A stretch of DNA of 64,000 bases from Opitutia bacterium UBA7876 (GTDB lineage: Bacteria; Verrucomicrobiota; Verrucomicrobiia; Opitutales; Seribacteraceae): contig DLRY01000046.1 of the NCBI GenBank assembly GCA_002500665.1, forward strand, positions 6,462 to 70,461, in the 5' to 3' direction. Shown here in pieces: positions 3,174 to 37,384 of this stretch (positions are counted from its first letter, which is position 1; each line of letters begins with the position of its first letter). Both the position numbers and the translations under genes were made by a program. The notes beneath the pieces are model-generated. The model searched no databases. It had not been told where the DNA came from and saw nothing but the letters and a program-made list of their open reading frames with translations.

Positions 3174-3184
3174 AAGTCGATTGA

Positions 3185-4630
3185 TTAGGCGTCCTCGTCC
3201 GCATATTCCCAAGGAAGAGGAAACGAAACCTTTTTCTGCTCCCAAGGCTTGAAAACGTCAAAGATTTTCCCCGGATTGAGGATACCCTTGGGGTCTAGCG
3301 TTCCCTTGATCGCCCGCATTGCGCCCCACTCGGCCTCGCTGAACTGCAGGTGAGCAAAAGGAGTCTTAGCCAACCCAATACCGTGCTCACCGCTGATCGC
3401 CCCACCCAAATCGATGACTTTCCTCATCAGTTTCTCAAGAGCCGAAACGGCCCGCCCTGTCTCCTCTGCGTCACTCTCGTCGTACATAAAGTTGACGTGA
3501 AGGTTTCCATCTCCGCAATGACCGAACACGCCGATTTTCAAGCTCGTGTCTTCCCTGAGCAAACTTACGAAGTCCACCAGTTCAATCTGGCGGTCCAGCG
3601 GAACGACCACGTCTTCATTCAACTTGGTTTCGGCAAGCTTCTTCATGGCAGGGGAAGCCTGACGGCGAACCTCCCACAGCGTTTCTTCCTCCTCACCACT
3701 CTCAGCGACGCAAGAGCGAACCGAGTTTTGCCCGAGCCAGGCTAGTAGCTTTTCGCTCTGGGCGTTTATGGACGACTCGGTACCATCCAGCTCAATAAGC
3801 AGAACGGCGTGGGAAGCGAGACCGGGAAAGACGTCCTTGCCAGTATATTGTTGAACGCAATCGACCGTCCACTGGTCGAGAAACTCGATGATCGAGGGTC
3901 TGACGCCCATCCTCATCAATTCCGCAGGTGCCGACAGGGCCGAGGCTTCGCTCGAAAAGGCTGCAAGAAAGGTCCTTCTTCCCTCGGGTTGTGGAATCAG
4001 CCTCAAGGTTGCCTCGGTCACTACCCCGAGGGTGCCCTCGCTTCCCACCCAAAGGTCCCGCAGGTTGTAACCGGTGGCAAATTTACGAGTCGCCCTACCC
4101 CAGCGCACGAACTCTCCCGTTGAGAGGAATCCCGCAAGGGCGAGGACGTAATCCCTGGTAACCCCATACTTCACGCAGCGAAGCCCACCGGCATTGCAGG
4201 CGACGTTCCCGCCAATGGTGCAAAACTTCTTGGACGACGGATCGGGGGGATAAAATAGGCCGACCGCAGAGGCTTTTTTCTGCAAATCCTCGACGACGGC
4301 CCCTGGCCCGCAGTTGGCGAGCATATTGCCCTCGTCGATTTCAATCGAGTCCAGGCCACTTAGATCCAAGACCCATCCTCCACCTATGGGGGTCGCCCCT
4401 CCAGTAAGAGAAGATCCGGCGCCACGAGTGGTGACGGGGATCGAGAACTCACTAGCCACTTCCAGAATTTCGCCTACTTGGGCACCGGAAACCGGCCGGA
4501 CGACCGCATCAGGTATCTTTCCGACCTTCAGGCCGTCGAAAGAGGCCGTGGACAAGTCCTCTTCCTCACGGCGAACGCAAGGACCGAGTTTTTTCTCCAA
4601 AAGAGATAGAGCATCTTCTTGTTGTGACAT
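3185..4630 (-). CDS. FAD-linked oxidase, GlcD/D-lactate dehydrogenase family
   Basis: RGAGSSLTGG, PPDPSS, TIGGNVACNAGG, FGHCGDGNLHVN, ISGEHGIG, GILNPGK. Confidence 0.9.
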   Translation of the reverse strand: MSQQEDALSLLEKKLGPCVRREEEDLSTASFDGLKVGKIPDAVVRPVSGAQVGEILEVASEFSIPVTTRGAGSSLTGGATPIGGGWVLDLSGLDSIEIDEGNMLANCGPGAVVEDLQKKASAVGLFYPPDPSSKKFCTIGGNVACNAGGLRCVKYGVTRDYVLALAGFLSTGEFVRWGRATRKFATGYNLRDLWVGSEGTLGVVTEATLRLIPQPEGRRTFLAAFSSEASALSAPAELMRMGVRPSIIEFLDQWTVDCVQQYTGKDVFPGLASHAVLLIELDGTESSINAQSEKLLAWLGQNSVRSCVAESGEEEETLWEVRRQASPAMKKLAETKLNEDVVVPLDRQIELVDFVSLLREDTSLKIGVFGHCGDGNLHVNFMYDESDAEETGRAVSALEKLMRKVIDLGGAISGEHGIGLAKTPFAHLQFSEAEWGAMRAIKGTLDPKGILNPGKIFDVFKPWEQKKVSFPLPWEYADEDA

Positions 4631-4715
4631 GATGGGGCGGAACCTAAATGGAGCATTCTATTGCTTTGCCGGCCGATTGCTAAGAAAAAAGCGATAGGAG
4701 AGGCGTTTTGGCCCG

Positions 4716-5135
4716 CTAACCCGACTTTGTGTCGAGGCTCAGCTTGGTCAGGTTGCGTTCCTTAAGCATATTGACCACGTCAATGACCTTCTGATACGGC
4801 AGGGCGCGATCCCCTCGAATATGGATGGTCGGCTGCTCGCCCGCTGATTCGGCTATCGCATCGAGGCGTCCTTCAAGTTCACCCTTGCTGACCGAATCCT
4901 TGCCCCACTGGTACTTACCCTTGGCATCGATGGTGATGAACCTGTCCTCTATTTCCGGTGGAGGCTGAATGGGACCGGGGGCCTGATCCGGGAGATCGAT
5001 CCGGTTGTACTGTTCAATAACCGGGGTGGTGATCATGAAGATGATGAGCAGGGAAAACGCCAAATCGATCAAGGGGGTTACGTTGAGATCGGAAATGACC
5101 GCCAGTTTGTTCTCTCTCTTGAAGTCTCTCGCCAT
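4716..5135 (-). CDS. exbD: ExbD/TolR biopolymer transporter
   Basis: LNVTPLIDLAFSLLIIFMITTP, then IRGDRALPYQKVIDV. Confidence 0.9.
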   Translation of the reverse strand: MARDFKRENKLAVISDLNVTPLIDLAFSLLIIFMITTPVIEQYNRIDLPDQAPGPIQPPPEIEDRFITIDAKGKYQWGKDSVSKGELEGRLDAIAESAGEQPTIHIRGDRALPYQKVIDVVNMLKERNLTKLSLDTKSG

Positions 5136-5165
5136 ACTAAACGATTACCCTTTCAACGATTCTGC

Positions 5166-5855
5166 TCAGGAATCTTTCTCAAGCTCGATCCGGTCGGCCA
5201 AGTTGCTTGCGAAGTTCTCCAACTTGGTCATACATGAGCGGGTCGTCCCGAGGAGGTGATTATAAGCAAAGACGATGGGAATCGCCACGCAGAGGGCCGC
5301 CACGGTGGTCAGCAGGGCACCCGAAACCCCCGGAGCCAAGTGCTCGATGGTGGCTCCCCCCTTGTCCATGGTGCCGAAAGCGTCCATCACGCCCCACACC
5401 GTGCCGAGCAAGCCGAGAAAGGGAGCTCCGGAGACGATGGTGGCCAGCCAGTACATCTTGGCCTCATACCTCTCCGCGACCTCGGCCAAGGCCCGCTTGA
5501 TCGCATTCTCGACGTAGTTCATGCGAACCTTCCCGTCATGCATGCTTCTGCGGGCAGCCTCCATGGCCCGCGAGCAGATCTTCAGATATGGACTCCCCTC
5601 CCCCGGAAAAAGGGCGTCGTCGTAATCGTATATGGAGGGAAGGTCGTTGAGACGCTTTTCATCCCGCGCGTTGTGTTTGTTCGCCTTCTTGAGCTCCTGA
5701 AACTTGCTCAGCATCAGGCTGACCGCATAGCAATTCATCACGGCTAGAACCACGATTACCATCTTGCCGGCGAAGTTCGAGTCCACGAAATACTCGAATA
5801 GTTTCAAATCGGCCAAAAAAACGTTTCCCGCCCCAAACAGGTCAAAGTCGATCAT
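5166..5855 (-). CDS. exbB: ExbB/TolQ/MotA proton channel
   Basis: SGAPFLGLLGTVWGVM and GVSGALLTTVAALCVAIP; directly upstream of exbD. Confidence 0.9.
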   Translation of the reverse strand: MIDFDLFGAGNVFLADLKLFEYFVDSNFAGKMVIVVLAVMNCYAVSLMLSKFQELKKANKHNARDEKRLNDLPSIYDYDDALFPGEGSPYLKICSRAMEAARRSMHDGKVRMNYVENAIKRALAEVAERYEAKMYWLATIVSGAPFLGLLGTVWGVMDAFGTMDKGGATIEHLAPGVSGALLTTVAALCVAIPIVFAYNHLLGTTRSCMTKLENFASNLADRIELEKDS

Positions 5856-6004
5856 AATTCCTATCCTCCATTAAATTTCCCACATACTTCTTTTTCTTTT
5901 TTCCGGCGTGAGATCAACGAAAATTTGCTGCGGTCAATTCTTAAGGTCCCGTGGGCTCGATTAAGTTTGCCCATTTTTGCAAAGAATCATAGTGACGAAT
6001 CAGC

Positions 6005-7129
6005 ATGCAAGTTTCATCAGAGGTCATTGACGAACTAAGTGAAAAGACCTTCGATCCCTCGGGACGAAGGGCCGTCGTCGGACTGGATGGGTTCGTCGAC
6101 AAAATCGTCACCCCGGTCGACAAGAGACACGGCCTCGAGGACGACTTCGATGCCATAGAAACCATTGGCGACTTGGGAGCCAGAATCAGTGCGGCGGCGG
6201 GCAAAAGCGCCAACATCGAACTTTATCCCCGTTTCGACAAACTTGGAGGCAACGGGCCCATTATGGCCAACGCCCTTCTCTCCCTTGGCCTAGGCGTCAG
6301 GTACGTCGGAGCCTTGGGTCGGCCTGTCGTTGACCCGGTATTCGAGGAATTCGCCCGCAACACCGAGGCCGTTTCCCTCACCAACCCGGGGATTACCACC
6401 GCCGCCGAATTCAAGGACGGCAAGCTCATGTTCGGAAACATGCGCAGCCTTGGGGAAATCGACTTCGACCGCATCATGGAAGTTTGCGGACGGGAATCCT
6501 TCCTCGGAATGCTGACCGAGGCAGACGTGTTATCGATCGTCAACTGGACCATGATCCCCAAGATGACCTCCATTTTGCAGCGCATGGCGGAAGAAATCAT
6601 GCCCGACCTGGGCGATGCGGGTCCCGAAGGATTCTTCTTCGACCTTACCGATCCGGCCAAACGCTCGACTGAGGACATCCGCGAGGTACTGGAAGTCATT
6701 TCCCGCTTTCAAGGCTTCTCGGAAGTCACTCTCGGGCTCAATTTCAACGAAGCCCACCAGGTTTCGGATACGCTGGGTCTTCAAAAAGGCGAAAGAAGCG
6801 AGCAATCCCTTAGGGATATGGCTTCTGCGATTCGTGAAAAACTACGAATTTCATGCGTCGTCGTACACCCCGTGGAATCGGCTGGCTGCGCCACGGAGGA
6901 AGGATCCTGGTGGTCCGAGGGTCCTTACACAGAGAACCCCAAGATTACCACCGGTGCCGGGGATCACTTCAATGCGGGCTTCTCAGCAGCCAGGCTTTGC
7001 GGTTTTTCCCCACTTGCCTCCCTCGCCTTGGCTACTTGTACCTCGGGTCATTACGTTCGCTCAGCCCAAAGCCCAACCCCCGACCAAGTAGTCGACCTGC
7101 TCACGCAGGCAAGGGATTCTTCGCAGTGA
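6005..7129 (+). CDS. PfkB-family carbohydrate kinase
   Basis: GGNGPIMANAL near the N-terminus and the PfkB signature TTGAGDHFNAGF. Confidence 0.85.
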   Translation: MQVSSEVIDELSEKTFDPSGRRAVVGLDGFVDKIVTPVDKRHGLEDDFDAIETIGDLGARISAAAGKSANIELYPRFDKLGGNGPIMANALLSLGLGVRYVGALGRPVVDPVFEEFARNTEAVSLTNPGITTAAEFKDGKLMFGNMRSLGEIDFDRIMEVCGRESFLGMLTEADVLSIVNWTMIPKMTSILQRMAEEIMPDLGDAGPEGFFFDLTDPAKRSTEDIREVLEVISRFQGFSEVTLGLNFNEAHQVSDTLGLQKGERSEQSLRDMASAIREKLRISCVVVHPVESAGCATEEGSWWSEGPYTENPKITTGAGDHFNAGFSAARLCGFSPLASLALATCTSGHYVRSAQSPTPDQVVDLLTQARDSSQ

Positions 7130-24094: not shown

Positions 24095-26032
24095 CTAGGG
24101 AACCCGAAGAGGTTCGCCAAGCTCAACCCGGATGGCTCGGATCATGGCGTCCGCATTCAGGGGATTCAAACCGGCCAGCATGACCGAGACGTTTGGGTAA
24201 AGAACATCCTCTCCCTCGGCAGGCAAGAATACCAAGTTTTCGTATTTCCTAACCATGAGCCTGGGGTTGGTCTTGCTCTGAACGTCCTCGAAGGATGCGC
24301 CTGCAAGCTCGAGAGCTTTGAGGTACTTCTCCATCTTTTCGTCCATTGCCCTTTGGGTCAGAGGTCGCTCGACCTCTTTCTCCTCCTCGGTGAAAACAGA
24401 ATTTCCGCGCTTGTCGATAGACTTAACCTGAATTTTATCGATGTCCTTAAGGACAAGAATCCCGTTCCTCACTACCAACCCGGCCGACTTCGATTTTATG
24501 CCGGACGCCAGAACCCCCTTCCAAAGCCGGCTCGAGAATTCCCTTTCATAAAAGCTCGAGTCCTTTTCCAGTTCAAGCCCGATGGATGAGAAAAGTTGGT
24601 CCGTTTCTCCTACCAGGTAGCTTAGATCAGAGGGAGAAACCGGGCTTCCCCTTGCGTATTCTTCACTCGTTATGCGCAAGGAGCCTAGCGAGACTTCGTC
24701 CGGCATAACGCTCAGGGCAAATTCCTTGTCCTTCACGCCGACCTGCATCCCCCAGGAAGTGCGAAACAGGGAGAAGGCATCCTTCAAGGCAACGAGATTA
24801 TCCGCCTCCACCTGCTTTCCTTTGTAGGCATTATAGTTGAAAAGCGCGACGGCCAGGGCTGCGAAACTGTCCTCGCCTTGGGGGTTTTGCTCGGCGAACT
24901 TCTCCTCGACGCGTTTTACGATCAGTGAAAGTTCATCCGCCTTGGCCTTGAACTCCGGCCCCAGTGCAGTGACGTCGAACATCGGAGCAACAACCGGGTC
25001 GGGCGGATCCTCCACCTCGGGAGGAGAATCGACCCGGGCAAGATCATCGGAAACGAGCTCTCCATCCTGGTAGGTTTCATCCTTCAGGATGGTTCCATCC
25101 TTTGTCCTGAGGGTCCTACTGCCATCCCTCTTTCCGGACCTGTAGGAACCTTCGTCGTACTTTTGACCGTCGTTATGCCAAAGGGCGTAACGACCATCCT
25201 TAAAACCATCGGCATAGAAGGTTTCGGCCGCCTTCTGTCCATTGGGGTGCCAATTCGTCATCCGGCCATGAAGCTTGCCGTCCTTGAAGAAACTCTCCTC
25301 GCTCTTTTGACCATCCTCGTGCCAAGTCATTCTCATGCCGTTCAATAATCCCAAGCTATAACTGGATTCGGTCATCCTGTTCCCATTCGCATAGTAGCCG
25401 ACTATCCTGCCGCTCCCCTTGGAAAAGGCGCTTAGCGGACACTCTTCGCCATCAGGTTTCCAGGAAAAGGCCCGAAAGGGTCTGCCATTCTCAAATTCGA
25501 CCAAGTCCGCTACTTGATCGGTATCGAAAAAACGACGAACACTCCATCCGCTGAAGGCTTCATCGGCACCGAGGAGAAACACGCGACCCTCTCTTTCCTC
25601 CAGGTCAGAGGCATCGGTAGCGTTTCCCTCGACTGCAGCCTGGTCGAAGGGAACTCCCTTTTCGGCGCCGCCACTCTCGTGCTCAGGATTGCCAGGATCG
25701 GCTTCAAAGGATCCTCCTAGAAAATAAAACGCAATGCAGGCAAGCCCCAACCCTACAAGGATAACCGTGAGAATTGTATTAAGCGCTCCGCCCGCACCTC
25801 CCTTGAGCACGATTCGCTTGCCTTCATCGGTTTCTTCTTCTTGGGCGAAATCCTCATCCGGAACTAGATCCAAGGCCTTCGATATGGAAACCCATTCGTC
25901 CTCTCCCACTGTGCAAATATGGTCCCCGGGATCGAAGGAACCTTCCTCCACTTTTCGCTTGATCTCATTCAAGCCGTAAGGACCTACGCTCTCACCGTCC
26001 TTGTTTACCCAGTGTAGATCTGAATCCCCCAT
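24095..26032 (-). CDS. GYF_2 (DUF4339) + TM + MORN2 (YwqK-like) repeats + unknown C-terminal domain
   Basis: N-terminal WVNKDGESVGPYGLNEI...EW, TM ILTVILVGLGLACIAFYFL, repeats WHEDGQKSEE/WHPNGQKAAE/WHNDGQKYDE. Confidence 0.8.
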   Translation of the reverse strand: MGDSDLHWVNKDGESVGPYGLNEIKRKVEEGSFDPGDHICTVGEDEWVSISKALDLVPDEDFAQEEETDEGKRIVLKGGAGGALNTILTVILVGLGLACIAFYFLGGSFEADPGNPEHESGGAEKGVPFDQAAVEGNATDASDLEEREGRVFLLGADEAFSGWSVRRFFDTDQVADLVEFENGRPFRAFSWKPDGEECPLSAFSKGSGRIVGYYANGNRMTESSYSLGLLNGMRMTWHEDGQKSEESFFKDGKLHGRMTNWHPNGQKAAETFYADGFKDGRYALWHNDGQKYDEGSYRSGKRDGSRTLRTKDGTILKDETYQDGELVSDDLARVDSPPEVEDPPDPVVAPMFDVTALGPEFKAKADELSLIVKRVEEKFAEQNPQGEDSFAALAVALFNYNAYKGKQVEADNLVALKDAFSLFRTSWGMQVGVKDKEFALSVMPDEVSLGSLRITSEEYARGSPVSPSDLSYLVGETDQLFSSIGLELEKDSSFYEREFSSRLWKGVLASGIKSKSAGLVVRNGILVLKDIDKIQVKSIDKRGNSVFTEEEKEVERPLTQRAMDEKMEKYLKALELAGASFEDVQSKTNPRLMVRKYENLVFLPAEGEDVLYPNVSVMLAGLNPLNADAMIRAIRVELGEPLRVP

Positions 26033-26255
26033 GGTGATTCGCTACCACGCCGCAATCATGTTTTCAAGTTTCCATTTTTACGTGCAAAGAATCTTTGTTC
26101 TCAAAGACGCGACATCGCCAAGACCTTCTTCTTGACCCCATATGCGGCATCCTTTTTGCTCAAAAATATGATTTTATCAGGAAATCCTTTAGAAATAGTT
26201 CGGAACGTTAGCTAGCAATGGCCCGCTTATCACCGGGGAGGACTGCTTTTCGAAA

Positions 26256-27014
26256 ATGAAGGCATACGTTGGAAGGAACGGACAAAACTTGGGCCTTTTT
26301 TCCATCGAGCAAATAAGGGGTGAGATCGAGGCGGGAAGACTTCACGAACAGGATCTTGCCTGCCACGACGGCGCCAACTGGATCCGCCTCAAGGACTTGC
26401 CCGGACTATTCCAGCAGCCCGCTGCCAAAGTCGACCGACCTGTAGGGGACAAAGAAAAGCCCAAGATAATATGGTTCATACTGCCCGTCTTCGCATGTTG
26501 CATCGTGGGGGTCTGGGGAATTTCAGCCCTGTTCTTCGGCAAGGAGAACGAGCAGGATTCCTCAAAGCAAGTTCTTTCATCAGAGACGCTAGAATGGAAT
26601 CCTGATCAAGGGGAGAGCGATCAAGGTTCTTCAAAGCCAACTTTTTCATCAGGCACGCTTGAGTTGACTCCAGACCAAGTTGTGAAAGTGTATGATGGAG
26701 ATACTTTCTTCGTGCATCTACCGGGTATACACGAAATCTTCGGCAACAATATATCCATCCGCATCAAAGGGATCGATACACCCGAGATGAGAGGAACAAG
26801 CGACGAAATCAAGGTCCTTGCGACCAAGGCTCGTGAACTGACGGAAAGAACCCTCAAGGAAGGGAAACGCATTCAGTTGCGAAACCCCGAAAGGGGCAAA
26901 TACTTCAGGATCGTGGCCGAAGTATGGGTAGACGGTAACGCTCTTGCCGACATACTGAAAGCCGAAGAATTGGCGCAGGACTACGACGGTGAAGGCGAAA
27001 GGCCCACGTGGTAG
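26256..27014 (+). CDS. GYF_2 + TM + thermonuclease (SNase) fusion
   Basis: N-terminal YVGRNGQNLGLFS...W, TM IIWFILPVFACCIVGVWGISALFF, C-terminal VYDGDTF / IRIKGIDTPE / GKYFRIVAEV nuclease motifs. Confidence 0.85.
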   Translation: MKAYVGRNGQNLGLFSIEQIRGEIEAGRLHEQDLACHDGANWIRLKDLPGLFQQPAAKVDRPVGDKEKPKIIWFILPVFACCIVGVWGISALFFGKENEQDSSKQVLSSETLEWNPDQGESDQGSSKPTFSSGTLELTPDQVVKVYDGDTFFVHLPGIHEIFGNNISIRIKGIDTPEMRGTSDEIKVLATKARELTERTLKEGKRIQLRNPERGKYFRIVAEVWVDGNALADILKAEELAQDYDGEGERPTW

Positions 27015-27112
27015 CCCATCCCCGACCTGCTCCGCCCGCTAATGATACAAACAATTAGATAGCCCTTGACAGAAGCCTCATCCGGGGAAGGATTGAACAC
27101 TCAGTCTTTGCT

Positions 27113-28528
27113 ATGATTGGTCTTTCCGGGAGCATTCAATTTGTTACCTCCAGTATGGAGAGGTTTTCCGTGCGGGCGCATGCCTCGGTCAACAAGATCC
27201 TAAGTTCCGGGGATCCAGTAAGACGAGCGAGGCATGAAAATGATGCGGGAGCCATCAGTTTAGCGGCTAAGTTGTCATTCGACTCCGCCGCAAAAAGAAA
27301 CTCGATAAGTTCCTTTCAAAATGCCATCTCGTTCATGCAGTTGCAGGAATCAGCCCTCAACCAGGCCGACAGGATATATCAGGAAATGATATCCCTGGCC
27401 TCCCTTGCGTCCGATCCGTCCGCTAATCAGGAGAACCGGCATTTGCTTGGTCAGCAGTTTGAGTCGCTCAGGCAGCAATCCTTGGACCTCAATCAAAGTA
27501 CCTTCAATGACAGATACCTCTTCGATGAGCTTGCTGCATCAACGGATTACACCGTCGATTTTGCCTCCGGGCTTACGAACGACACACCGGCGACCATCTC
27601 GGGTTCGCCAAAGGTCTGGGAGGTAACGAAGGATGTTTTGTACAACACCGGAAAGATGACCATCGACGTCAATTCGGGTACCGCGGGCGACCGCTACATG
27701 CTCAAGCAGGACAACCTTGTTATCTTCGACTCCGGTTCTTGGGACACGGCTGGCAACGCCAAAACCTATGATTATGACCGCTTCGAGATCGAGTACGGTC
27801 CCGATAAGGAAACCACTTTCAAGTTCATCGCTCAATCCGACGGAAACTCCAGCTCGGTTGACTTGGATGGCCCCGATGGGATAAAGGGGACAGCCGATGA
27901 TGGAGTTCTCCCCTCGGACAATACCTTCGACAACAAACCCTACTACCTTAACAACTTGGGGCTAACCGACGACGGGACTAGTTCCGGAGTGGCAAACAGT
28001 TCGGAGGTTTTATACACTAACCAAGGCCAAGTCACCACCGCCAAGTCGAATCCCGACACGACTAATCTCACCCTGCGGATTGAATCCAACACCCTCTTCC
28101 AGATCGGTGCCGAATTCACCAAACCGAACGCCGATGATATTCTGGTAGGTAATGCAAGCGACATACAGGTCGCGATGAAGCCATTGGGTCTTGGCTTGCT
28201 TCTTTCTCAAGAAGCGGGAAACCCGCCCCTTTCAATTGCCACCGCATCCGAAGCAGTCAAAGCCCTGCAAAGCATCACCAAGGAGATTGAGGGAGTCGCA
28301 GAGCAATTAGGCACGCTCCGCAGTAACTTCACCAAGGTCGAACTTGCTATGGAAGGGGTACAAAAAAAGCTGGCCAGCCAAGAAAATGTCATGTCCATCA
28401 TTTCGGACGAAGGCTTGGCTGAAGATTTGACTCAGCTTAGTAGAGATAGAATACTCCGATCCCAAAGCGCAGCCATCATGACACAGGCAATCTCCGTTAA
28501 CGAGGGAATCGTCGACTTGATTCTCTAA
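27113..28528 (+). CDS. Divergent flagellin-family protein
   Basis: N-terminal LSSGDPVRRARHENDAGAIS...QNAISFMQLQESAL and C-terminal AEQLGTLRSNF...ISDEGLAEDLTQLSRDRILRSQSAAIMTQA match the flagellin D0/D1 helices; ~200-aa beta-rich insert. Confidence 0.8.
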   Translation: MIGLSGSIQFVTSSMERFSVRAHASVNKILSSGDPVRRARHENDAGAISLAAKLSFDSAAKRNSISSFQNAISFMQLQESALNQADRIYQEMISLASLASDPSANQENRHLLGQQFESLRQQSLDLNQSTFNDRYLFDELAASTDYTVDFASGLTNDTPATISGSPKVWEVTKDVLYNTGKMTIDVNSGTAGDRYMLKQDNLVIFDSGSWDTAGNAKTYDYDRFEIEYGPDKETTFKFIAQSDGNSSSVDLDGPDGIKGTADDGVLPSDNTFDNKPYYLNNLGLTDDGTSSGVANSSEVLYTNQGQVTTAKSNPDTTNLTLRIESNTLFQIGAEFTKPNADDILVGNASDIQVAMKPLGLGLLLSQEAGNPPLSIATASEAVKALQSITKEIEGVAEQLGTLRSNFTKVELAMEGVQKKLASQENVMSIISDEGLAEDLTQLSRDRILRSQSAAIMTQAISVNEGIVDLIL

Positions 28529-28588
28529 GGTCATTCCCCATTCGAGCCTTGTAAAAAGTGCCGGAGGACTTATAGCTTAGGGCATTGG

Positions 28589-28678
28589 GGAAGGATGGCA
28601 GAGTGGTCTAATGCGGCGGTCTTGAAAACCGCTGAGCCGGAAACGGTTCCGGGGGTTCGAATCCCTCTCCTTCCGCCA
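28589..28678 (+). tRNA. tRNA-Ser (anticodon TGA)
   Basis: 90 nt, acceptor stem GGAAGGA/TCCTTCC, anticodon arm GCGGT-CTTGAAA-ACCGC, long variable arm, GTTCGAAT, encoded CCA. Confidence 0.97.
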
Positions 28679-28696
28679 TTCTCGTTAGACTGGAAT

Positions 28697-28732
28697 AAAA
28701 AAAGGGCCCGGAGTACAAGACTCCGAGCCCTT
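28697..28732 (-). terminator. Intrinsic terminator of the large ncRNA (may also stop tRNA-Ser transcription)
   Basis: Minus strand AAGGGCUCGGAGU-CUUGU-ACUCCGGGCCCUU is a 13-bp stem with one U-G pair, ending in a 7-U tract whose first two U residues close the stem. Confidence 0.9.
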
Positions 28733-29530
28733 AAAAGGTTGGGACGGCGCTCGCCACACGCTCGTTCCCGGATGCCAGCATTTGGCGCATGTATAGCTGC
28801 TGACTCCCCGACGCCATTCGAAGAGGTATGTCTCCGTTTCGGCCTCATGACAGGGCCGTCGAATCAACTTTGGACTGAAACGATTTTGAGGAAAGGCTTC
28901 TGGGCAACTTCAGCACTCCATGAGGAGTGGCTTCGGCTACTCGGCTACTCTCTGGTTACCTTCTGGATTGTAGCCACTTCGACTCAAGCACGCGTCTGGC
29001 AAGCCAGACTCGTACTTTCATCAATACGGGTATCGCCTCATACCTCTCAGGTCATTTGGGGTAACTACATCGCGGTGTAAGCCACGAATCAAAACGGTCG
29101 AAGAATCTTACAATTCTCGACCAACCGAAACAACCAACTTATACCAAACCCGAAGGCTCTGCACGACACTCACTACCAATGTCAATTGGTTGTAACATTT
29201 ACTGGAAAGTCGCGGTAACGACCATGCCTCTTGGCAACCGCTATGATAAGCAGACGAGACCTGTCCTTTTATCAATAACTACGAAAGTCGCGGTCTCAAT
29301 GCAACTTTCGCCCTCCCTGCGCTAAACGTGTTTTTCGCGAGCACGGCTCGCGATACGCAGAGGGTGACGTTTGCCTTCTCGATCAAACCCCAAGAGAGGC
29401 TCAAACGCGAAGGAGCGGAATTCTCCAGTAGAATCCGACCTTTAACCTGGCGTAAACCAGGCTTATCCATGTCTGGTCTTGTATCCGACACAAGTGCCGG
29501 AGCCAATTCCTGAACATTCTGTCAAAGAAC
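28697..29530 (-). ncRNA. Large (~800-830 nt) structured non-coding RNA; MISL-class candidate (GOLLD-like as alternative)
   Basis: No credible CDS; flanked by a promoter and a terminator. More than 12 hairpins read by eye, including a 10-bp stem at 29282-29310, an 8-bp perfect stem at 29335-29353 and G(CUUG)C at 28994-29009, plus complementary hairpin loops. G-U pairs work on the minus strand. The family assignment rests only on size, taxon and context. Confidence 0.75.
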
Positions 29531-29536
29531 GAAATC

Positions 29537-29575
29537 ATAATACTGTCACCCAAACGAACTTGTCAAATTTTTTTT
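29537..29575 (-). promoter_or_regulatory. Near-consensus sigma70 promoter driving the large ncRNA
   Basis: Minus strand TTGACA (29566-29561), 18 bp spacer, TATTAT (29542-29537), with an upstream A-tract resembling an UP element. Confidence 0.75.
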
Positions 29576-29601
29576 TCATAATTTACTGATTATCATACTA
29601 A

Positions 29602-29744
29602 TGTGAATATAACGTGAATATTCTGTGAATAAAGCTAAAGGAATATCGCAACGGTTACCAACATTCCCTTTTAAAGCCTAAAAGTATAATTTTTATAAGA
29701 ATGTGAATGAGTTATGATTATAAATCTCGAGGGATTGTGAATAA
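29602..29744. repeat. Five co-oriented DnaA-box-like 9-mers in an AT-rich patch
   Basis: TGTGAATAT 29602, CGTGAATAT 29613, TGTGAATAA 29624, TGTGAATGA 29702, TGTGAATAA 29736. TGTGAATAA is the reverse complement of TTATTCACA and fits TTWTNCACA. Confidence 0.6.
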
Positions 29745-29874
29745 CTGAACCGCCCGAAAAAAAGTTTAGAAAAAATTTAGTTTTTTTCTTTTTTGGAAGA
29801 AAAAATAAAAAATGTCTAAGGGGTTGGATTCTCGATGGTTGACTATTTCAATGAGGGTGGTTCATCTTGGTTGA

Positions 29875-30690
29875 ATGCAGCCAGTCCTATGCTCCGCAAT
29901 CATGCTCCTCTCTCCACTTGGCAGCATCGAGGCAAACTCCACCCCAGCCTTCGACGTGGACGATCAAGGCATGCTAGCGAAGGTTCTGCAACATGCGGCC
30001 AAGGGAAGGTGGAATGAATTCCGGAACAAGTCTTTGCCTTTCGATGAGTTCAGGCAAAGGAACGGACGACAATACTTTCGCTCTGAAGAAGAACCTTTTT
30101 CCGGATGGTATGGACAATGGGACGATAACGGAACCTTGAGAAACCTACGTCACTTTTGGGGTGGAATCTCGTGGGGACCTATCTACGGTTGGCGGACAAA
30201 CGGCATGAAGTCTCACCAAGGAAACTACGAAAAAGGCAGGAAGCACGGAACTTTTTATTTTTGGAACGAAAACCTCACCAAGATTAGGGAAACCAATTAC
30301 AAGAACGGCAAACTGGACGGTAATTCCACAACTTGGTACGCGAGCGGCAGGGAAAGCTGTCGGCTATCCTTCAAATCGGGCAAGATTCTTTCCGCCATCG
30401 GGTGGAAGCCCGATGGGCAAAGATGTCCGTCCACCAGAGTCACCGATGGGGTCGGCTTGGTTTTGCTCTACGCCGATGAGGAAACGGGAACCAAACCGGC
30501 AACTCCCACCAAAGTGCAGCAGCTCGTAATTGAGAGATACGACAATGGAAACAAGCGGGAGGAAGGAACCTACCTGAACGGCAAAAAAGAAGGGCTTTGG
30601 ATCTATTACCGCACCGACGGGACTGAATTCTTCAGGGAAACCTACCAGTCGGGCTCCCGGCAAAGACTCATCCAGTCCATAGAGCGTTAA
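29875..30690 (+). CDS. Exported MORN2-repeat (YwqK-like) protein
   Basis: Hydrophobic N-terminus; repeats WRTNGMKSHQGNY, WYASGRESC, YDNGNKREEGTYLNGKKEGLW. Confidence 0.75.
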   Translation: MQPVLCSAIMLLSPLGSIEANSTPAFDVDDQGMLAKVLQHAAKGRWNEFRNKSLPFDEFRQRNGRQYFRSEEEPFSGWYGQWDDNGTLRNLRHFWGGISWGPIYGWRTNGMKSHQGNYEKGRKHGTFYFWNENLTKIRETNYKNGKLDGNSTTWYASGRESCRLSFKSGKILSAIGWKPDGQRCPSTRVTDGVGLVLLYADEETGTKPATPTKVQQLVIERYDNGNKREEGTYLNGKKEGLWIYYRTDGTEFFRETYQSGSRQRLIQSIER

Positions 30691-30704
30691 GCCGGATAAT
30701 CGCC

Positions 30705-31145
30705 TCAGGGCGCTTCCTCGGGCGAATCGCCGTCCTCCGGCATGTCCCTTGGTCCCTCCGAATCGCCCGGCAATCGCTCGTGAATTTGGTCGAGTTCCTC
30801 GGGAGGCGTCGTAAAACGTGTAAAGGTTTGCCTTTCGGTCGACTGGGTAATCTTGAGCAGCAGATCTTCGTTCTCCCGATCCAAGTAGAAAATCTGGAGA
30901 AGCTTGGAATGCGAATCATTGACCAGTTTCTTGCTGTCGTCGAAAGGAGAGAAATATTCGGGTTTCAATTTCTTCAACCTTGCGAGAGACTCGTCCAACT
31001 GGGGAAGCATTTGTTGCTTGCGCCCGATCAGGTCCATATCGGGGGCAACCTTCTTGGTCTTGAGCCAAGTATTCTCCTCGAGGAGAAGAGCATGAACATC
31101 CTCACACAAATCAAGGTGAGCCTTGATGACGCTTCTAGGCTCCAT
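30705..31145 (-). CDS. FlgN-like small helical protein (putative flagellar export chaperone)
   Basis: Probable start MEPRS at 31145. Helical pattern LLLEEN..L....DLIGRKQQML..L...L and a terminal DRENEDLLL resemble FlgN. Confidence 0.55.
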   Translation of the reverse strand: MEPRSVIKAHLDLCEDVHALLLEENTWLKTKKVAPDMDLIGRKQQMLPQLDESLARLKKLKPEYFSPFDDSKKLVNDSHSKLLQIFYLDRENEDLLLKITQSTERQTFTRFTTPPEELDQIHERLPGDSEGPRDMPEDGDSPEEAP

Positions 31146-31155
31146 TATGAAATCG

Positions 31156-33318
31156 TCACTCGGGAGAGGGAATTTCGTCTCCAGTTGCCTCGGGACGCGT
31201 GTAAATCCCATATCGGTTAACGGCCTGCCTGATGGCACGGGTATCCTCAAGTTGCTCCCTTCTCCACTTCGCCATTCCGAAAACGAAATTCAAGTACTTG
31301 TTGCTGGCCATCCTCTCGCGAGCTTCTTCCGAAGTAACATATTCCTCGATGGAGGAATACGTTTCCATAGCCTGCACGTAGTTGCCCAGCTTTTCCTCGC
31401 AAAGGGCAATTTGATAGAGTACAGGAACCTGCCAAGCGGGGGAAGGATCAATCTCACGAAGGGCCGAATAGATACGGTATGCGTTGAAGTACTCGCTTTC
31501 CTCAAAAAACTTGTTCGCGAGATAGTTGCCGGTTTTCTTCTTCCAGAAATTCCATACCCCCTTCAATCGGTTAATGGCCGCCTGATCACGATCCCGGACT
31601 GCCCTTTCCTGTTCCAGATTCAGGATCATCTCGGGGTTGAAATCGGATTCCTTAAGCAAGACCAAGAGCTCTGCAACAGACTCCTCATCCTGATTGAGCT
31701 GTTCATAGGTAAGGGCAAGCAGATAGTGGGCTTCGGGCACGTAGGGACTTTGGGGATAAAGGGTGCCGTATGAACGGAGGGTTTCCTTAACCTTGGCAAA
31801 ATCCGCCCTTGGAGTCTTGTCGTATTCCAGTTCGACTTCCATTCTTTGCTCGGGAGGCAGGCGGTTCATCTTGTCTTTCTCACGCAGGCTTTCCCTGGCA
31901 CGGCGATAATGAGCCAACCCCTGCTTGAACCGGACGAAGCTACGATCCGTGTCGCTCAATTGCTCCAACCTCCAAAGCCTGTCGAAAAACTTGATCGCAT
32001 TATCATAGTCCTCCGCATCCATAAAGGTTTCCGCTATTTCAAACATTGCCTGGTTGGACTCGGAGTCAGTACGTGTCTCCAAGACCTTGCCTTTTTGCTT
32101 CTCCGCCAACTCAAAGGCCTCGTTGCGGGGAAGAGTGAGGGTTGCATTAATAGCCTCGTAAAACTTGTTGAGGGCCATGCGATGCGCTCCTAGGTTACGA
32201 TATATCTTACCCAGTCGGATATGAGTTTCGGGAATAGTCGGGGCTCCACGCTTCCTTCCCTCGAGCCACTTTTCCACCGAGCCAAGAGGAGCCTTGAGGT
32301 CGGGAATGCCCGGGGCATCCTCGTGGTCCTGAAAAGGATAGGCATCATCGGCGGCAAATTCCTCCACGTAGCGCTCATAGGTTTTGGCGGCATCCACCCA
32401 AGCCTGGTTACGCTCATGCATCGACATTAGAGATAGCAGGATATCCCTGCGATAGCGTTTGTGATAAGGAGCGTTCAACCGGCCCAGCACCCGGTTGCAA
32501 TAGGATGTGGCCTTGAATACGGATCGGCTGACAAAAGGAAGATTCGTCCCTCCAGAAGCTTGCCTGGTCTGCATGATAGCCTCCATTATCTTGCCCTTGA
32601 GTTCCTCGTCAATACGGTCGCCGAGAACGGTATACTCCTCAATCTCCGAGGGATCGCGAGGATCGGGCCTTTGGTTGAGGACGTTCGATTCCACGACCTC
32701 CACGGGTTCCCTCGAATCCTTTGGAGTCTGAGGAAGAGGTTTCTCCAGTGGCTGGGCATCGGCCGAGGGAAACGCGAGCGGACGAGCAAATTCGGGCATG
32801 TCATACGGATCGACTTCCCTGAGCAGATCCTCCAAAGACGCCTTGCCGTAGTCGACTTCCTCAAGGGGGGACAAAGTTGCCTGTGGCCGAAACGATCCGG
32901 ACGTCCCGACTGGATCCGCTCCCTGACTCGAATCGGCACTGGGAGGATTGACGTCATCCTTGTTATAAGGCTGGAGCGTGGAATCAGCAGATGGCTCAGA
33001 ACCTTGGTTCAGCAGATTGCCAGGCAACAATTCGTCCTTGAGCCTGAAGGATTTGTCCCCGGAGTCAGTGGGTGACTGAGGACGGGGTCGGCTCTGGATA
33101 TCAACCGGGCCATATAGAGGGGAGTCGGATTCGGGTGGAGATTGAACGGCGGGAGAAGCAGAGCTTTTCTCGATATCATCGAGCAAGGCGTCGATGCCTT
33201 GAATCACTTCTTGGAGAGACTTCTCCTCAATTCGGGTCTGCCCGTCCTGGGCAAATGTCGAAGAAACGAAGAATGAATAAAGAAAATTGATAAAAACAAG
33301 TGGAAAAGAGATCTTCAT
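31156..33318 (-). CDS. Exported tetratricopeptide-repeat protein
   Basis: Signal peptide, Pro/Ser-rich linker, TPR-like units (AMFEIAETFMDAEDYDNAIKFF, AHYLLALTYEQL, VLYQIALCEEKLGNY). Confidence 0.8.
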   Translation of the reverse strand: MKISFPLVFINFLYSFFVSSTFAQDGQTRIEEKSLQEVIQGIDALLDDIEKSSASPAVQSPPESDSPLYGPVDIQSRPRPQSPTDSGDKSFRLKDELLPGNLLNQGSEPSADSTLQPYNKDDVNPPSADSSQGADPVGTSGSFRPQATLSPLEEVDYGKASLEDLLREVDPYDMPEFARPLAFPSADAQPLEKPLPQTPKDSREPVEVVESNVLNQRPDPRDPSEIEEYTVLGDRIDEELKGKIMEAIMQTRQASGGTNLPFVSRSVFKATSYCNRVLGRLNAPYHKRYRRDILLSLMSMHERNQAWVDAAKTYERYVEEFAADDAYPFQDHEDAPGIPDLKAPLGSVEKWLEGRKRGAPTIPETHIRLGKIYRNLGAHRMALNKFYEAINATLTLPRNEAFELAEKQKGKVLETRTDSESNQAMFEIAETFMDAEDYDNAIKFFDRLWRLEQLSDTDRSFVRFKQGLAHYRRARESLREKDKMNRLPPEQRMEVELEYDKTPRADFAKVKETLRSYGTLYPQSPYVPEAHYLLALTYEQLNQDEESVAELLVLLKESDFNPEMILNLEQERAVRDRDQAAINRLKGVWNFWKKKTGNYLANKFFEESEYFNAYRIYSALREIDPSPAWQVPVLYQIALCEEKLGNYVQAMETYSSIEEYVTSEEARERMASNKYLNFVFGMAKWRREQLEDTRAIRQAVNRYGIYTRPEATGDEIPSPE

Positions 33319-33971: not shown

Positions 33972-34529
33972 CTAAAAGTCGGGCACATGAATTCCCCTCT
34001 GGTGTTCTCGGTGGACTGATAACAAGTCTTCCATGGTATGCACGTCCAACGGATGAACGCCCCTCGCCTCGAAGACCCGGGCCGTTATATCGAAGGGATC
34101 GCCATAATTCTCCAGGCAAGACCGAGTTTGAGCCCAAACGGCATACGGATCGGACAAGGCCTCTCCCGTCTCTTCGGCCAGTTCGATGGCCTTCAGGATA
34201 ACCGACTCCTCGCATTCCGGGAAATTACAATTGAAGTTCACATGGAGATCGCATTCATGGTTCTCAAGGATGTGCTGGAAGACCGGCACGGATGCGACCC
34301 CGTCGCCCGAGAGCGTCTCGGGACGAGGCAGAATTCTCACGTCAGGATGCATGCAGGTTCTCGCAATCAGCTCGCTGTCCGTCGACAAGACGACTTCATC
34401 GATGCGAGGGCAATCCAGGAGCTTGTGAACTGCCCGTAGAACCAAAGGTACTCCCTTGTACGGGAGGAGGTTCTTGTAGGTCAAGCGCTTGCTGCCAATC
34501 CTGGCGATCACTGAACCGACTATCTTCAT
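33972..34529 (-). CDS. Short acylneuraminate/CMP-sugar cytidylyltransferase (NeuA/PseF-like)
   Basis: IARIGSKRLTYKNL, VVLSTDSE, RPETLSGD, terminal LDVHTMEDL; only 185 aa. Confidence 0.8.
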   Translation of the reverse strand: MKIVGSVIARIGSKRLTYKNLLPYKGVPLVLRAVHKLLDCPRIDEVVLSTDSELIARTCMHPDVRILPRPETLSGDGVASVPVFQHILENHECDLHVNFNCNFPECEESVILKAIELAEETGEALSDPYAVWAQTRSCLENYGDPFDITARVFEARGVHPLDVHTMEDLLSVHREHQRGIHVPDF

Positions 34530-34626
34530 ATCTTCAGCCTAGCCCAGAGCTAAGAGCCTTTGCAAGTCGCTTGTCGAATGTCTTTCAGCTTGGAAAGAAC
34601 CTCCTAATTTGGTTTTCTTTTAAGCA

Positions 34627-35799
34627 ATGGGACTTATTCCTTATTCAAAGCAAAGTATCGGCGAGGAAGATTTGCTCGCCGTCGAGCGGATGATGAAAGA
34701 TGACTTTCTCACTCAAGGACCACAAGTAAGTGAATTCGAGAAGGACCTGGCTGGATGGTTTGGCGTCAAGCAAGCGGTCGCCTGCTCCAGTGGTACCGCC
34801 GCTCTCCACTTGGCCTATTCCTCGCTCGGCATCGATGAGAATAGTATAGGCATCGTACCCGCGGTAACCTTCTCTGCAACCGCAAACGCCCTCAAATATC
34901 AGGGAGCAAAGCCAATTTTCTGCGACGTAGACCCTGAAAGTGGCTTGATTGACCTCGAATCCGTGGAGGAAATACTTAACAACTTGAACCCAAACCAGAA
35001 GCGGAGCAAGAACCTCATCGTCCCCGTTTCGCTGACGGGTTCGGTAGCCCCCCTTAAAGGATGCAGGATTCTTGCCGACAAACATGAATTTTGCGTGGTA
35101 GAGGATGCCTCCCATTCCCCGGGGGCTTGGAGGGAGGAATCAGATGGCAATAAAATCAAAAGCGCCTCTGGGGAATGGTCGGATGCCTCGACCTTGAGCT
35201 TTCATCCAGTCAAGCACGTCTGTTGTGGCGAGGGGGGGGCGATCCTCACCAACTCCGCGGAGATTCGCAAGCATGCGGTCAAATTGAGAAGCCATGGCAT
35301 CCAGCGTCCATTTGGCCCCGAACATGAGACGCCTTGGGCCTACGAACAGGACGAACTGGGCTGGAACTATCGGCTCTCCGACATCCACGCGGCCTTGGGA
35401 AGATCACAGCTCAAATGCTTGAAGAACTCCCTCCTCAAGAGAAGAGAGATCGCCGCCCGCTACCGCGAACTGCTTGGCAAAAAACCGTTTTCCAGTCATT
35501 TCGGCCTGCCGAACGAAGAGAAAGGACACGCTTGGCATCTGTTCGTGCTTCGCTTCAGGAAACCAGGCCGTCGCGACCAAGCGCACAAATTCCTAAAGGA
35601 GAGGGGAATCATGACGCAAGTTCACTACGTCCCCCTTTACCGACACCCTTATTTCGAGAGAGAAATGGGGAAAATACGGCTTCCGGGGGCGGAAAAGTTT
35701 TTCGAGGGATGTCTCAGCATTCCTCTTTTTCCGAATTTGACGAAGGGAGAACAAGACGCCGTTGTAAACGAGATCGCCCGATTCATCGAAAAAGGATGA
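34627..35799 (+). CDS. pseC: DegT/DnrJ aminotransferase, PseC-like
   Basis: IPYSKQSI, FLTQGP, CSSGTAALHLA, EDASHS, SFHPVKHVCCGEGG, ELGWNYRLSDI, QVHYVP. Confidence 0.82.
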   Translation: MGLIPYSKQSIGEEDLLAVERMMKDDFLTQGPQVSEFEKDLAGWFGVKQAVACSSGTAALHLAYSSLGIDENSIGIVPAVTFSATANALKYQGAKPIFCDVDPESGLIDLESVEEILNNLNPNQKRSKNLIVPVSLTGSVAPLKGCRILADKHEFCVVEDASHSPGAWREESDGNKIKSASGEWSDASTLSFHPVKHVCCGEGGAILTNSAEIRKHAVKLRSHGIQRPFGPEHETPWAYEQDELGWNYRLSDIHAALGRSQLKCLKNSLLKRREIAARYRELLGKKPFSSHFGLPNEEKGHAWHLFVLRFRKPGRRDQAHKFLKERGIMTQVHYVPLYRHPYFEREMGKIRLPGAEKFFEGCLSIPLFPNLTKGEQDAVVNEIARFIEKG

Positions 35800-36428
35800 C
35801 CGATCCAAAGGGATTCGAGCAGGAAAGGGAAAAACCCGGAGAATATCTCGCCCTAGGAGGTTTCAAGGCCAGTTACGGGGAGTACGCGACTAGTTCCATC
35901 AGAATGAAGGATGCTCTCCCCATCATGGCGTGGCGAAACACTCAAATCTCCGCCTTACGCCAAAAGGAGCCCCTTACCCGCGAGCAACAACTCCGATACT
36001 TCGAGGAAGTAGTCGGCAAACAGTTTTCTGAAAAGCGACCCCGCCAAGTTCTACTTAGGTTCACCCTTCAAGGAGAATTGATCGGGTATGGGGGACTGGT
36101 GCACGTCGACTGGGAAAATTCCAGGGCTGAAGCTTCCTTCCTTCTGGAGACCGAGAGGGCCAGGGACGTTTCACTCTACCAGGAAGAATGCCGCATTTTC
36201 ATGGCTTTTCTCCAACAATGCGCCTTCACCGTACTAGGTCTTAATAAGATCACCACTGAGGCCTACGCTCATCGGGAATTCCACCTTCAGGCCCTCGATT
36301 CAAGTGGTTTCATCAGGGAAGGAATCCTGCGCCAGCATGTCCAAGTCGATGGAACTTGGGTAGACGCAATCGTTTCGTCCTGCCTGAATTCAGAATTCGA
36401 AGGACAAGGCCGAGACCAGCAGGAATGA
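35796..36428 (+). CDS. GNAT N-acetyltransferase (PseH/RimJ-like)
   Basis: Start MTDPKG (ATGA overlap). IMAWRN..., LIGYGGLVHVDW, GFIREGILRQH. Confidence 0.8.
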   Translation: MTDPKGFEQEREKPGEYLALGGFKASYGEYATSSIRMKDALPIMAWRNTQISALRQKEPLTREQQLRYFEEVVGKQFSEKRPRQVLLRFTLQGELIGYGGLVHVDWENSRAEASFLLETERARDVSLYQEECRIFMAFLQQCAFTVLGLNKITTEAYAHREFHLQALDSSGFIREGILRQHVQVDGTWVDAIVSSCLNSEFEGQGRDQQE

Positions 36429-37384
36429 CAAAAGCGCCCGTCATCCTCTTTTCCAGCCTGTCTGCCAAGATCTCCCTTTACGAGCAAGTCCTCAGGGGAG
36501 CCAGGATGTTTCACCCAGAAGCCAAGCTCGTCGGAAGCGACAGCAACCCGAACTGCCCGGCGGCCGCGAAGGTGGAGACCTTCACTGAAATGCCTCCGCT
36601 AGATACCCTGGATAAAGATGGCCTGCTCGGGTTTTGCGCAGAATTGGGCATAACCCACGTCATACCTACCAGGGACGGGGAGCTTGACTTCTGGGCCCGC
36701 AACCGAGACGCACTGTACAAACATGGGGTTTCCGTCATGGTTTCCAGCCAGGAGGCCGTCGAGACCTGTCTGGACAAACTGCTTTTCCACAACCAGATGA
36801 AAAGCGCCTCCATTCCTCCTATCCCCACGGTAAAAAACACGGATGAGCTTGGCTCCGAGCGATTCGTAACTAAAGAAAGAAATGGAAGTGCCTCCTATCT
36901 AATCGGTTTGGACCTCGATGCAAAAGAAGCATCGGATCATGCCCTAAAGCTGCAGAACCCGATTTTTCAGCCCATGCTAAAGGGGCCGGAATTCAGTGCC
37001 GAGACTTGGATCGACGCAAGGGGGAAATGCCATGGAATGGTATTGCGATGGCGAAACAAGATCGTGGACGGGGAAGCGCATGAGAGCGAAATCTTCGACA
37101 ATCCAGATTGGGAACGGAGAATGAGGGACACCTTCGAGTCCTTGCCGGGCTTGTCTGGACATGCCTTGGCCCAAGTCATCGTCTCGGACGACCAAAGCCT
37201 TAGCCTGGTGGAAATAAATGCCAGGCTGGGTGGGGCAAGCCCGCTCGCCTTGTCCGCGGACTTGCATTCCATCGAATGGTTCCTGCTCCAGACCGAAAAA
37301 CGGGAATGCGAAATCCCCGAATCCCCAGTTACCAATAAAAACCTGCGCCTAAGCAAAATCAATGGAGAGGTGATCATTTCATGA
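36425..37384 (+). CDS. ATP-grasp ligase (carbamoyl-phosphate-synthase-like small family)
   Basis: Start MTKAPV (ATGA overlap). VIPTRDGEL, CLDKL, KERNGSAS, QPMLKGPEFS, VEINARLGG. Confidence 0.8.
   Translation: MTKAPVILFSSLSAKISLYEQVLRGARMFHPEAKLVGSDSNPNCPAAAKVETFTEMPPLDTLDKDGLLGFCAELGITHVIPTRDGELDFWARNRDALYKHGVSVMVSSQEAVETCLDKLLFHNQMKSASIPPIPTVKNTDELGSERFVTKERNGSASYLIGLDLDAKEASDHALKLQNPIFQPMLKGPEFSAETWIDARGKCHGMVLRWRNKIVDGEAHESEIFDNPDWERRMRDTFESLPGLSGHALAQVIVSDDQSLSLVEINARLGGASPLALSADLHSIEWFLLQTEKRECEIPESPVTNKNLRLSKINGEVIIS

Follow-up and report, generated by a model that had tools for sequence, protein, structure and literature searches.

What is encoded on the minus strand at positions 28697-29575 of the 64,000-nt stretch of DNA analysed here (the window, from contig DLRY01000046.1 of Opitutia bacterium UBA7876), where a promoter and a terminator appear to enclose a large, densely folded RNA and no protein? 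The first-pass annotation of this locus had left the choice between a member of the MISL family and a new giant RNA. We find that the RNA is a divergent member of MISL, a family already in Rfam (RF03079), and that it does not represent a new class. We also hold with high confidence a somewhat wider description: a single-copy MISL gene, in a marine member of the Opitutales, that forms a stand-alone non-coding unit of ~0.8 kb, whose helices show compensatory changes, and whose promoter is preceded by an array of DnaA-box-like sites from which control by DnaA, and action of the RNA in trans, may be inferred.

The whole window was searched with cmscan against Rfam 15 (4227 families). MISL matched at 29468..28746, on the minus strand only, with 302.5 bits (E = 2.6e-89) against a gathering score of 274.6 bits, and the match spans model positions 1-751, i.e., the full length of the model without truncation. 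Only MISL and tRNA reached their gathering scores. The MISL option of the first-pass annotation was therefore right, on the strand that it had named, and the option of a new giant RNA is refuted; by the annotation's own reasoning, novelty at the level of the family is gone. The size of the RNA, its dense hairpins and the adjoining tRNA-Ser(tga) gene (28589-28678, plus strand, convergent with the MISL RNA) had nonetheless made it reasonable to think of a new class, or of a phage- or tRNA-associated RNA of the GOLLD or ROOL type. We now consider such an identity very improbable. In addition to the full-length MISL match, a permissive scan of 28300-30000 gave no match to GOLLD, ROOL, OLE or other large-RNA families even at E up to 1, and a tRNA gene lies within 1.5 kb of MISL in just 3 of 34 loci, so that the proposed link to GOLLD through the neighbouring tRNA fails. 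Searches of 50,697 phage and 72,556 plasmid records likewise yielded no MISL, and the lone "viral" contig that carries it, described below, is most likely a chimera with a picorna-like RNA virus. Prophages and the vicinity of tRNAs are frequent locations for GOLLD and ROOL (PMC5737381); MISL, by contrast, is a chromosomal single-copy gene that as a rule has no tRNA close by. What MISL shares with GOLLD, ROOL and OLE is a size class, an ornate multi-helix architecture, high abundance and a poorly known function; the window RNA has no sequence or structure match to their models. For large RNAs of the GOLLD, ROOL and OLE type, RNA-only multimers seen by cryo-electron microscopy (cryo-EM) are reported (10.1101/2024.12.08.627333).

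Within MISL, the core of the window RNA (28746..29468, minus strand, as delimited by the RF03079 covariance model) is divergent, scoring 302 bits where most relatives score 350-610, and its identity to relatives is about 45%. The family likeness lies in the same helices, in the junction and loop blocks, in a verrucomicrobial host and in a stand-alone gene with its own promoter and terminator. When the RNA is aligned to the RF03079 consensus structure most helices are intact, and the non-standard pairs gather in a central part of low posterior. All of the conserved MISL blocks, which are common to 35 to 45 relatives, are found in the window, namely AGGCA..UCACC; CUGAGAGGUA.GAGGCGA.ACCCGU; CGGNCCUG..A.GAGNCCG; GCGUCGGGGAG; and GAGNGUGUGGCGANCNCC. 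Repeating the search genome-wide returned exactly one copy in the 3.7-Mb assembly, which is 95% complete. RNase P RNA, transfer-messenger RNA (tmRNA), 6S RNA and signal recognition particle (SRP) RNA were each located elsewhere in the genome, and MISL is therefore not a divergent form of any of these four housekeeping RNAs. The family reportedly stems from the 2017 survey of Weinberg et al., although the name MISL is absent from the main text of that survey. In the literature searched, MISL appears solely as an Rfam molecule for chemical mapping in the Ribonanza study, and no published function for it was found there.

The ends of the transcription unit could be placed with some precision, and they agree with the earlier claim that the RNA has a promoter and a terminator of its own. 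On the minus strand, a sigma-70-type promoter, TTGACA-18-TATTAT, lies at 29537..29566 and matches the consensus at 11 of 12 positions. The stretch 28400-30000 has six promoter-like sites, of which this is the best, against 1.6 in shuffled sequences. An A9 tract at 29568..29576, directly 5' of the -35 hexamer on the same strand, stands in the position of an UP element and may act as one. The intrinsic terminator (28697..28732, minus strand) has a 13-bp stem, a 5-nt loop and a T-run, these lying at 28732..28702, and is the sole terminator-like site in the same 1.6 kb; among MISL loci, a terminator-like hairpin follows within 110 nt of the model end in 84 of 98. Upstream of the model, a 5' leader (29469..29530, minus strand) begins at G29530, 7 nt downstream of the -10 hexamer, with the motif GTTCTTTGACAGAA (29530-29517). 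Of 79 MISL loci, 75 have this start motif, in the form GTTCnTTGAnAGAA, ~60 nt before the model begins, and the geometry of TTGACA, a spacer of 16-18 nt, a -10 hexamer, 6-8 nt and GTTC recurs in many relatives. The core of the motif occurs twice in the genome, once at the MISL locus and once inside an open reading frame (ORF) of 1335 amino acids, where it is read as a chance match.

At the opposite end, a 3' tail, GUCCCA (28740..28745, minus strand), is identical in five members of the same taxonomic family and is predicted by RNAalifold to pair with the GGGA of the conserved GGGAAC (alignment columns 824-827 with 849-852). Because the 5' motif, the 3' tail and the terminators are conserved, the transcript exceeds the Rfam model at both ends, beginning ~60 nt before it and extending at least 6 nt past its end, and the natural transcript runs from about 29530 to about 28700. 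These outer parts matter to anyone preparing MISL for cryo-EM or for selective 2'-hydroxyl acylation analysed by primer extension (SHAPE). The -35 and -10 elements are weak in many relatives, with 44 of 75 scoring 7/12 or less; this would fit dependence on an activator, yet it is also expected in high-GC genomes, and we give it little weight.

Is the RNA structured, and are its helices those of the family? On the minus strand, the minimum free energy (MFE) is -324.8 kcal/mol, compared with -275.1 +/- 8.1 in dinucleotide shuffles (z -6.1), so that it does fold better than shuffled controls. A whole-length MAFFT alignment of 35 MISLs, analysed with RNAalifold, was dropped since the central domain aligned too poorly at ~45% identity, and the well-aligned 3' domain and a same-family set were used in its place. 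In the 3' domain of 45 diverse MISLs, 17 of 30 RNAalifold pairs had changed on both sides, pair 124:170, for example, being UA in 18 sequences, CG in 14 and AU in 12. With ribosum scoring the same 45 sequences gave 47 pairs with 91% of paired cells standard, against 32-45% when partners were slid and 80% (maximum 81%) in column shuffles. Over the full transcript in five members of the window's taxonomic family, RNAalifold placed two-sided changes in 81 of 176 pairs. MISL helices are maintained by compensatory changes across relatives. Moreover, the 3'-domain alignment holds 270 G-U cells that would become A-C mismatches on the plus strand, which upholds the earlier argument that G-U stems favour the minus strand.

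Most of the individual hairpins drawn in the first-pass annotation are RF03079 consensus helices: CCUGG/CCAGG, CCCUCUGCG/CGCAGGG around a GCGAG hairpin, CGAAAGUUGC/GCGACUUUCG, GGUCGAGAAU/AUUCUUCGACC, GUCUGG-CUUG-CCAGAC and CACUCC-UCAU-GGAGUG. Two of them are not supported as drawn. CUUGUGU/AUACAAG falls in the 5' leader, where the MFE fold gives that stretch other partners, and ACCAAU-UGAC-AUUGGU is aligned differently by the Rfam model. A further candidate pairing was considered between UGACAG of the 5' motif (29517-29530) and CUGUCA in a conserved hairpin loop (28838-28843), which are complementary in the window's family (alignment columns 15-20 with 728-733). It was rejected as a trait of MISL at large, because other clades place a variable base of the motif opposite an invariant G and leave changes in the loop uncompensated.

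That the region might instead encode a protein, or serve as a cis-acting leader of a downstream gene, is in our judgement a negligible prospect. The minus strand does contain ORFs, but these reach at most 92 amino acids, and the plus strand has a single ORF of 161 amino acids that overlaps tRNA-Ser. An orthologue from the same genus aligns with 75% identity over 935 nt; of the 24 indels between the two, 22 have lengths not divisible by three, and the substitutions show no clear codon phase. The terminator of the unit faces the convergent tRNA, and the RNA contigs described below stop at the ends of the unit. The absence of a credible coding sequence over ~790 nt, as originally asserted, is thereby confirmed.

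Evidence for the RNA itself comes from seawater. Marine metagenomes contain sequence near-identical to the locus, as do several metatranscriptome runs from the sea, including very small ones, and contigs from four of these RNA runs (three studies) were mapped to 26500-31500 of the window; the contigs, taken from Logan, are strandless. All RNA contigs fall within 28736-29530, and depth is zero on the flagellin gene, the tRNA and the divergent downstream gene in all four, so that carry-over of DNA does not explain the MISL signal. Run X6 (31 Mb) yielded one contig of 783 nt that covers 28750-29530 with no differences and ends at the predicted start, and in run X10 (71 Mb), where tmRNA of the same genome was also detected, word depth reaches about 217. 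A discrete RNA of ~0.8 kb accumulates in seawater communities in which the neighbouring genes are undetectable. In one contig of run X15, 29062-29195 is replaced by 136 other letters. This points to a strain-level swap of a peripheral MISL helix, with which the range of lengths in the family (684-991 nt) is consistent.

How might the gene be controlled? Upstream of the promoter are five DnaA-box-like sites, all in the same (minus-strand) orientation. The distal one, TTATTCACA at 29736..29744, is a perfect match to TTWTNCACA, which is the near-universal DnaA box, and the next, TCATTCACA at 29702..29710, has one mismatch. The remaining three, a second TTATTCACA at 29624-29632 and the near-matches ATATTCACG (29613-29621) and ATATTCACA (29602-29610), form a head-to-tail array over 29602..29632 with 11-bp phasing, which stops 35 nt upstream of the -35 hexamer. 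This is the densest cluster of such sites in the 3.7-Mb assembly, denser than that in the upstream region of dnaA. TTWTNCACA occurs 68 times in 79 MISL upstream regions, compared with 2.7 +/- 1.6 times (maximum 8) in dinucleotide shuffles, and not once in 70 downstream control regions. When 8-mers were ranked de novo, TTATTCAC came out on top, being present in 72 of the 79 upstream regions (0.57 expected). With one mismatch allowed, the count is 262 sites against 12.5 expected, or 3.3 per locus on average; 78 of 79 loci have at least one, and the perfect core is found in 19 of 21 sequence clusters. The sites peak 120-260 nt upstream of the model start, just 5' of the promoter.

The same 8-mer is associated with dnaA. 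An exact TTATTCAC stands at the dnaA start, or no more than ~300 nt 5' of it, in 31 of 32 Opitutales genomes, with 50 of the 52 occurrences at those dnaA loci falling in that 5' zone; DnaA boxes in the 5' region of dnaA itself are the classic arrangement for autoregulation. The genome that contains the window has just 43 copies of TTATTCAC. Of the 13 that are intergenic, MISL and dnaA have two each, and a further one precedes nrdB. The nrdB case (G000:C93:199980, L240), in which DnaA-box-like sites precede the gene for the small subunit of ribonucleotide reductase, has a counterpart in the DnaA regulon of Escherichia coli, where a ribonucleotide reductase gene also has DnaA boxes upstream. Promoters under DnaA control in E. 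coli (dnaA, nrdAB and mioC) likewise have several boxes directly upstream of or around the promoter, and datA, DARS and the DnaA-box clusters of Bacillus subtilis are, from established knowledge, likewise clusters that lie away from the origin. The known examples control genes for proteins or are themselves DNA to which proteins bind, whereas here the product of a promoter controlled by DnaA would be a large structured RNA. No DnaA-controlled large non-coding RNA is described in the literature searched, and the Rfam entry for MISL, as far as the literature could be searched, makes no mention of a DnaA-box array or of the 5' motif.

We suggest that DnaA may bind the upstream array and so set the transcription of MISL, whose level would then follow DnaA activity, that is, the state of replication or of growth. 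The RNA would act in trans as a folded molecule, forming the core of a ribonucleoprotein or else an assembly made of RNA alone; we favour action in trans because nucleotides in junctions and loops are invariant, because peripheral helices vary in length, and because there is no conserved neighbouring gene. A bolder proposal, to which we give only a small chance, is that MISL is the RNA arm of the Opitutales DnaA regulon. Its synthesis would be set by the initiator, and the RNA would in turn affect the initiation of replication, the handling of the chromosome or adaptation to growth phase, for instance by serving as a scaffold to bind or titrate replication proteins.

Several observations weigh against our interpretation as a whole. 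The MISL score is just 28 bits over the Rfam cut-off, and model positions of about 280-400 align with low posterior and many non-standard pairs. The plus strand gives a z-score of -5.9, near-equal to that of the minus strand, and assignment of the strand by MFE z-score was rejected, both strands standing at about -6. Folding energy therefore supports a structured sequence and not the choice of strand, and four other lines decide for the minus strand: MISL matches in Rfam on that strand alone, the promoter and terminator are oriented along it, the start motif is conserved, and G-U pairs are numerous in alignments of the family. Position 29530 is reached by one contig only, that of X6, and the contigs carry no strand; furthermore, a 441-nt contig of X10 (depth 208) has its end precisely at 29468, where the Rfam model begins, which may reflect 5' processing or an assembly break caused by strain variation in the leader. 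Within the genus, 8 of 44 genomes have MISL, and in the other 36 it was not found; of the 14 genomes that are at least 90% complete, 4 have it and 10 gave no match. The gene is often lost, and its function is a dispensable one. Among the neighbours of MISL, no conserved candidate for a protein partner turned up. Finally, C is about as frequent as A at the ninth base of the box, and binding by DnaA is deduced from sequence, so that some other regulator, also active at dnaA, might bind there.

This last point deserves consideration in its own right. Some regulator different from DnaA, and in control of dnaA and nrdB as well, could bind the TTATTCAC sites; MISL would then still be a regulated gene, though under something else than the initiator. 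A cell-cycle regulator could plausibly share MISL, dnaA and nrdB as targets, and the frequent C at the ninth position speaks for this reading. We think this unlikely, given that the core fits the DnaA box TTWTNCACA, with 68 perfect matches, and that it is located in the 5' region of dnaA in 31 of 32 genomes.

A different challenge to the idea that the array serves the RNA is that the array is the primary element, i.e., a locus that titrates or recharges DnaA in the manner of datA, DARS or the B. subtilis clusters, or a part of oriC, with MISL being secondary or modulating. The density of the cluster at the MISL promoter would suit such a role, as would the 11-bp phase of its three boxes, which is like that of DnaA oligomer arrays, and an AT-rich tract further upstream (GC 0.376 at 29500-29999). 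In six genomes with large contigs, MISL is also located 155-608 kb from dnaA, mostly ~4-13% of chromosome length and ~21% in one; the tendency to be near the origin that this implies is weak, and the six genomes are not independent. However, there is no flip in GC skew at the locus, either in the window or in 20 loci examined over +/-7 kb, MISL is never adjacent to dnaA, and relatives of high GC have the boxes without an AT-rich tract of the unwinding type. An oriC at the MISL locus was rejected on GC skew and on the distance from dnaA. The body of the RNA is, moreover, conserved with covariation and abundant, and MISL is therefore not incidental read-through. We consider primacy of the array quite improbable, and prefer the reading in which the array controls a trans-acting MISL RNA.

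The distribution of MISL is centred on one order. It was found in 40 of 150 sampled Opitutales genomes that were at least 90% complete, representing 30 of 88 genera, usually in a single copy and sometimes in two. In a sample of 151 genomes drawn from the whole phylum, one further match lay beyond the Opitutales. When GTDB genomes were scanned with a pattern, most of the contigs recovered bore the labels Opitutales, Opitutaceae, Lacunisphaera, Nibricoccus or Verrucomicrobia, and the host range is thus that of Verrucomicrobiota, as expected for MISL. High-GC matches from other phyla were set aside as chance, with the exception of two contigs of metagenome-assembled genomes (MAGs), L090 and L069. 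These have the top MISL scores (611 and 605 bits) and are labelled Dongiaceae (Alphaproteobacteria) and Bifidobacteriaceae; since their 3' domains group with MAGs labelled Verrucomicrobia, mis-binning is likelier than transfer. In other MAGs, MISL stands at contig ends (G046:C61:12-768, G050:C162:16-783, G160:C69:132-494 and G144:C102:12-370), and it is perhaps strain variation in the variable helices that makes MAG contigs often break in or beside it.

Carriage of MISL by phages or plasmids was rejected, as neither collection gave a match and the sole match in IMG/VR (L176) is chimeric. This uncultivated virus genome (UViG) of 6773 nt has MISL at 31-773 on the minus strand (338 bits), followed by ORFs at 821-1513 and 1579-6501, also on the minus strand. 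The virus is picorna-like (RdRP_1, RNA_helicase and Rhv capsid domains), and a full MISL is attached to it head-to-tail where the contig ends; the whole is most likely a chimera of metatranscriptome assembly or template switching. As such, it is incidental evidence that MISL is plentiful in pools of RNA.

The genes around MISL vary. Around the MISL gene of the window stand a flagellin gene, GYF/SNase-like genes, a sugar cluster with DegT, cytidylyltransferase and ATP-grasp genes, and a pectate lyase. Neighbours that recur do so within clades only, namely a HrpB helicase upstream and TypA/BipA, Rho or a PALP enzyme downstream; none of these is in the window, and as candidate partners of MISL they were dismissed and read as clade synteny. 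A search for the "empty site" in genomes of the genus that lack MISL was likewise abandoned, synteny having been lost and the neighbouring gene family having 5-25 paralogues per genome. The gene concerned, divergent from MISL at 29875-30690 (plus strand), has no Pfam match and the same 5-25 paralogues per genome in the genus.

On the other side of the RNA, a flagellin-N gene (27113-28528), situated between a GYF/SNase-like gene and tRNA-Ser, is missing in the syntenic locus L217 (G311) of the nearest MISL-bearing relative; the difference is an indel of a flagellin copy beside the tRNA. Next to it, 24095-27014 contains two adjacent divergent genes that each start with GYF_2, one continuing with MORN repeats and the other with a staphylococcal-nuclease-like domain. 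Near the flagellin gene, at 33972-37384, a cytidylyltransferase (CTP_transf_3), a DegT-type aminotransferase and an ATP-grasp gene stand in a row, which looks like a cluster for nonulosonic acid or for flagellin glycosylation.

MISL is among the few bacterial non-coding RNAs that are as large as a domain of a ribosomal subunit, and our results from this locus and about 100 related ones include evidence from natural communities that it exists as a discrete, abundant species. The array, which is absent from the literature searched, and the transcript ends are the parts worth carrying forward. The conserved array in particular leads to a testable hypothesis, in which MISL would be tied to the replication cycle of the Opitutales that carry it.

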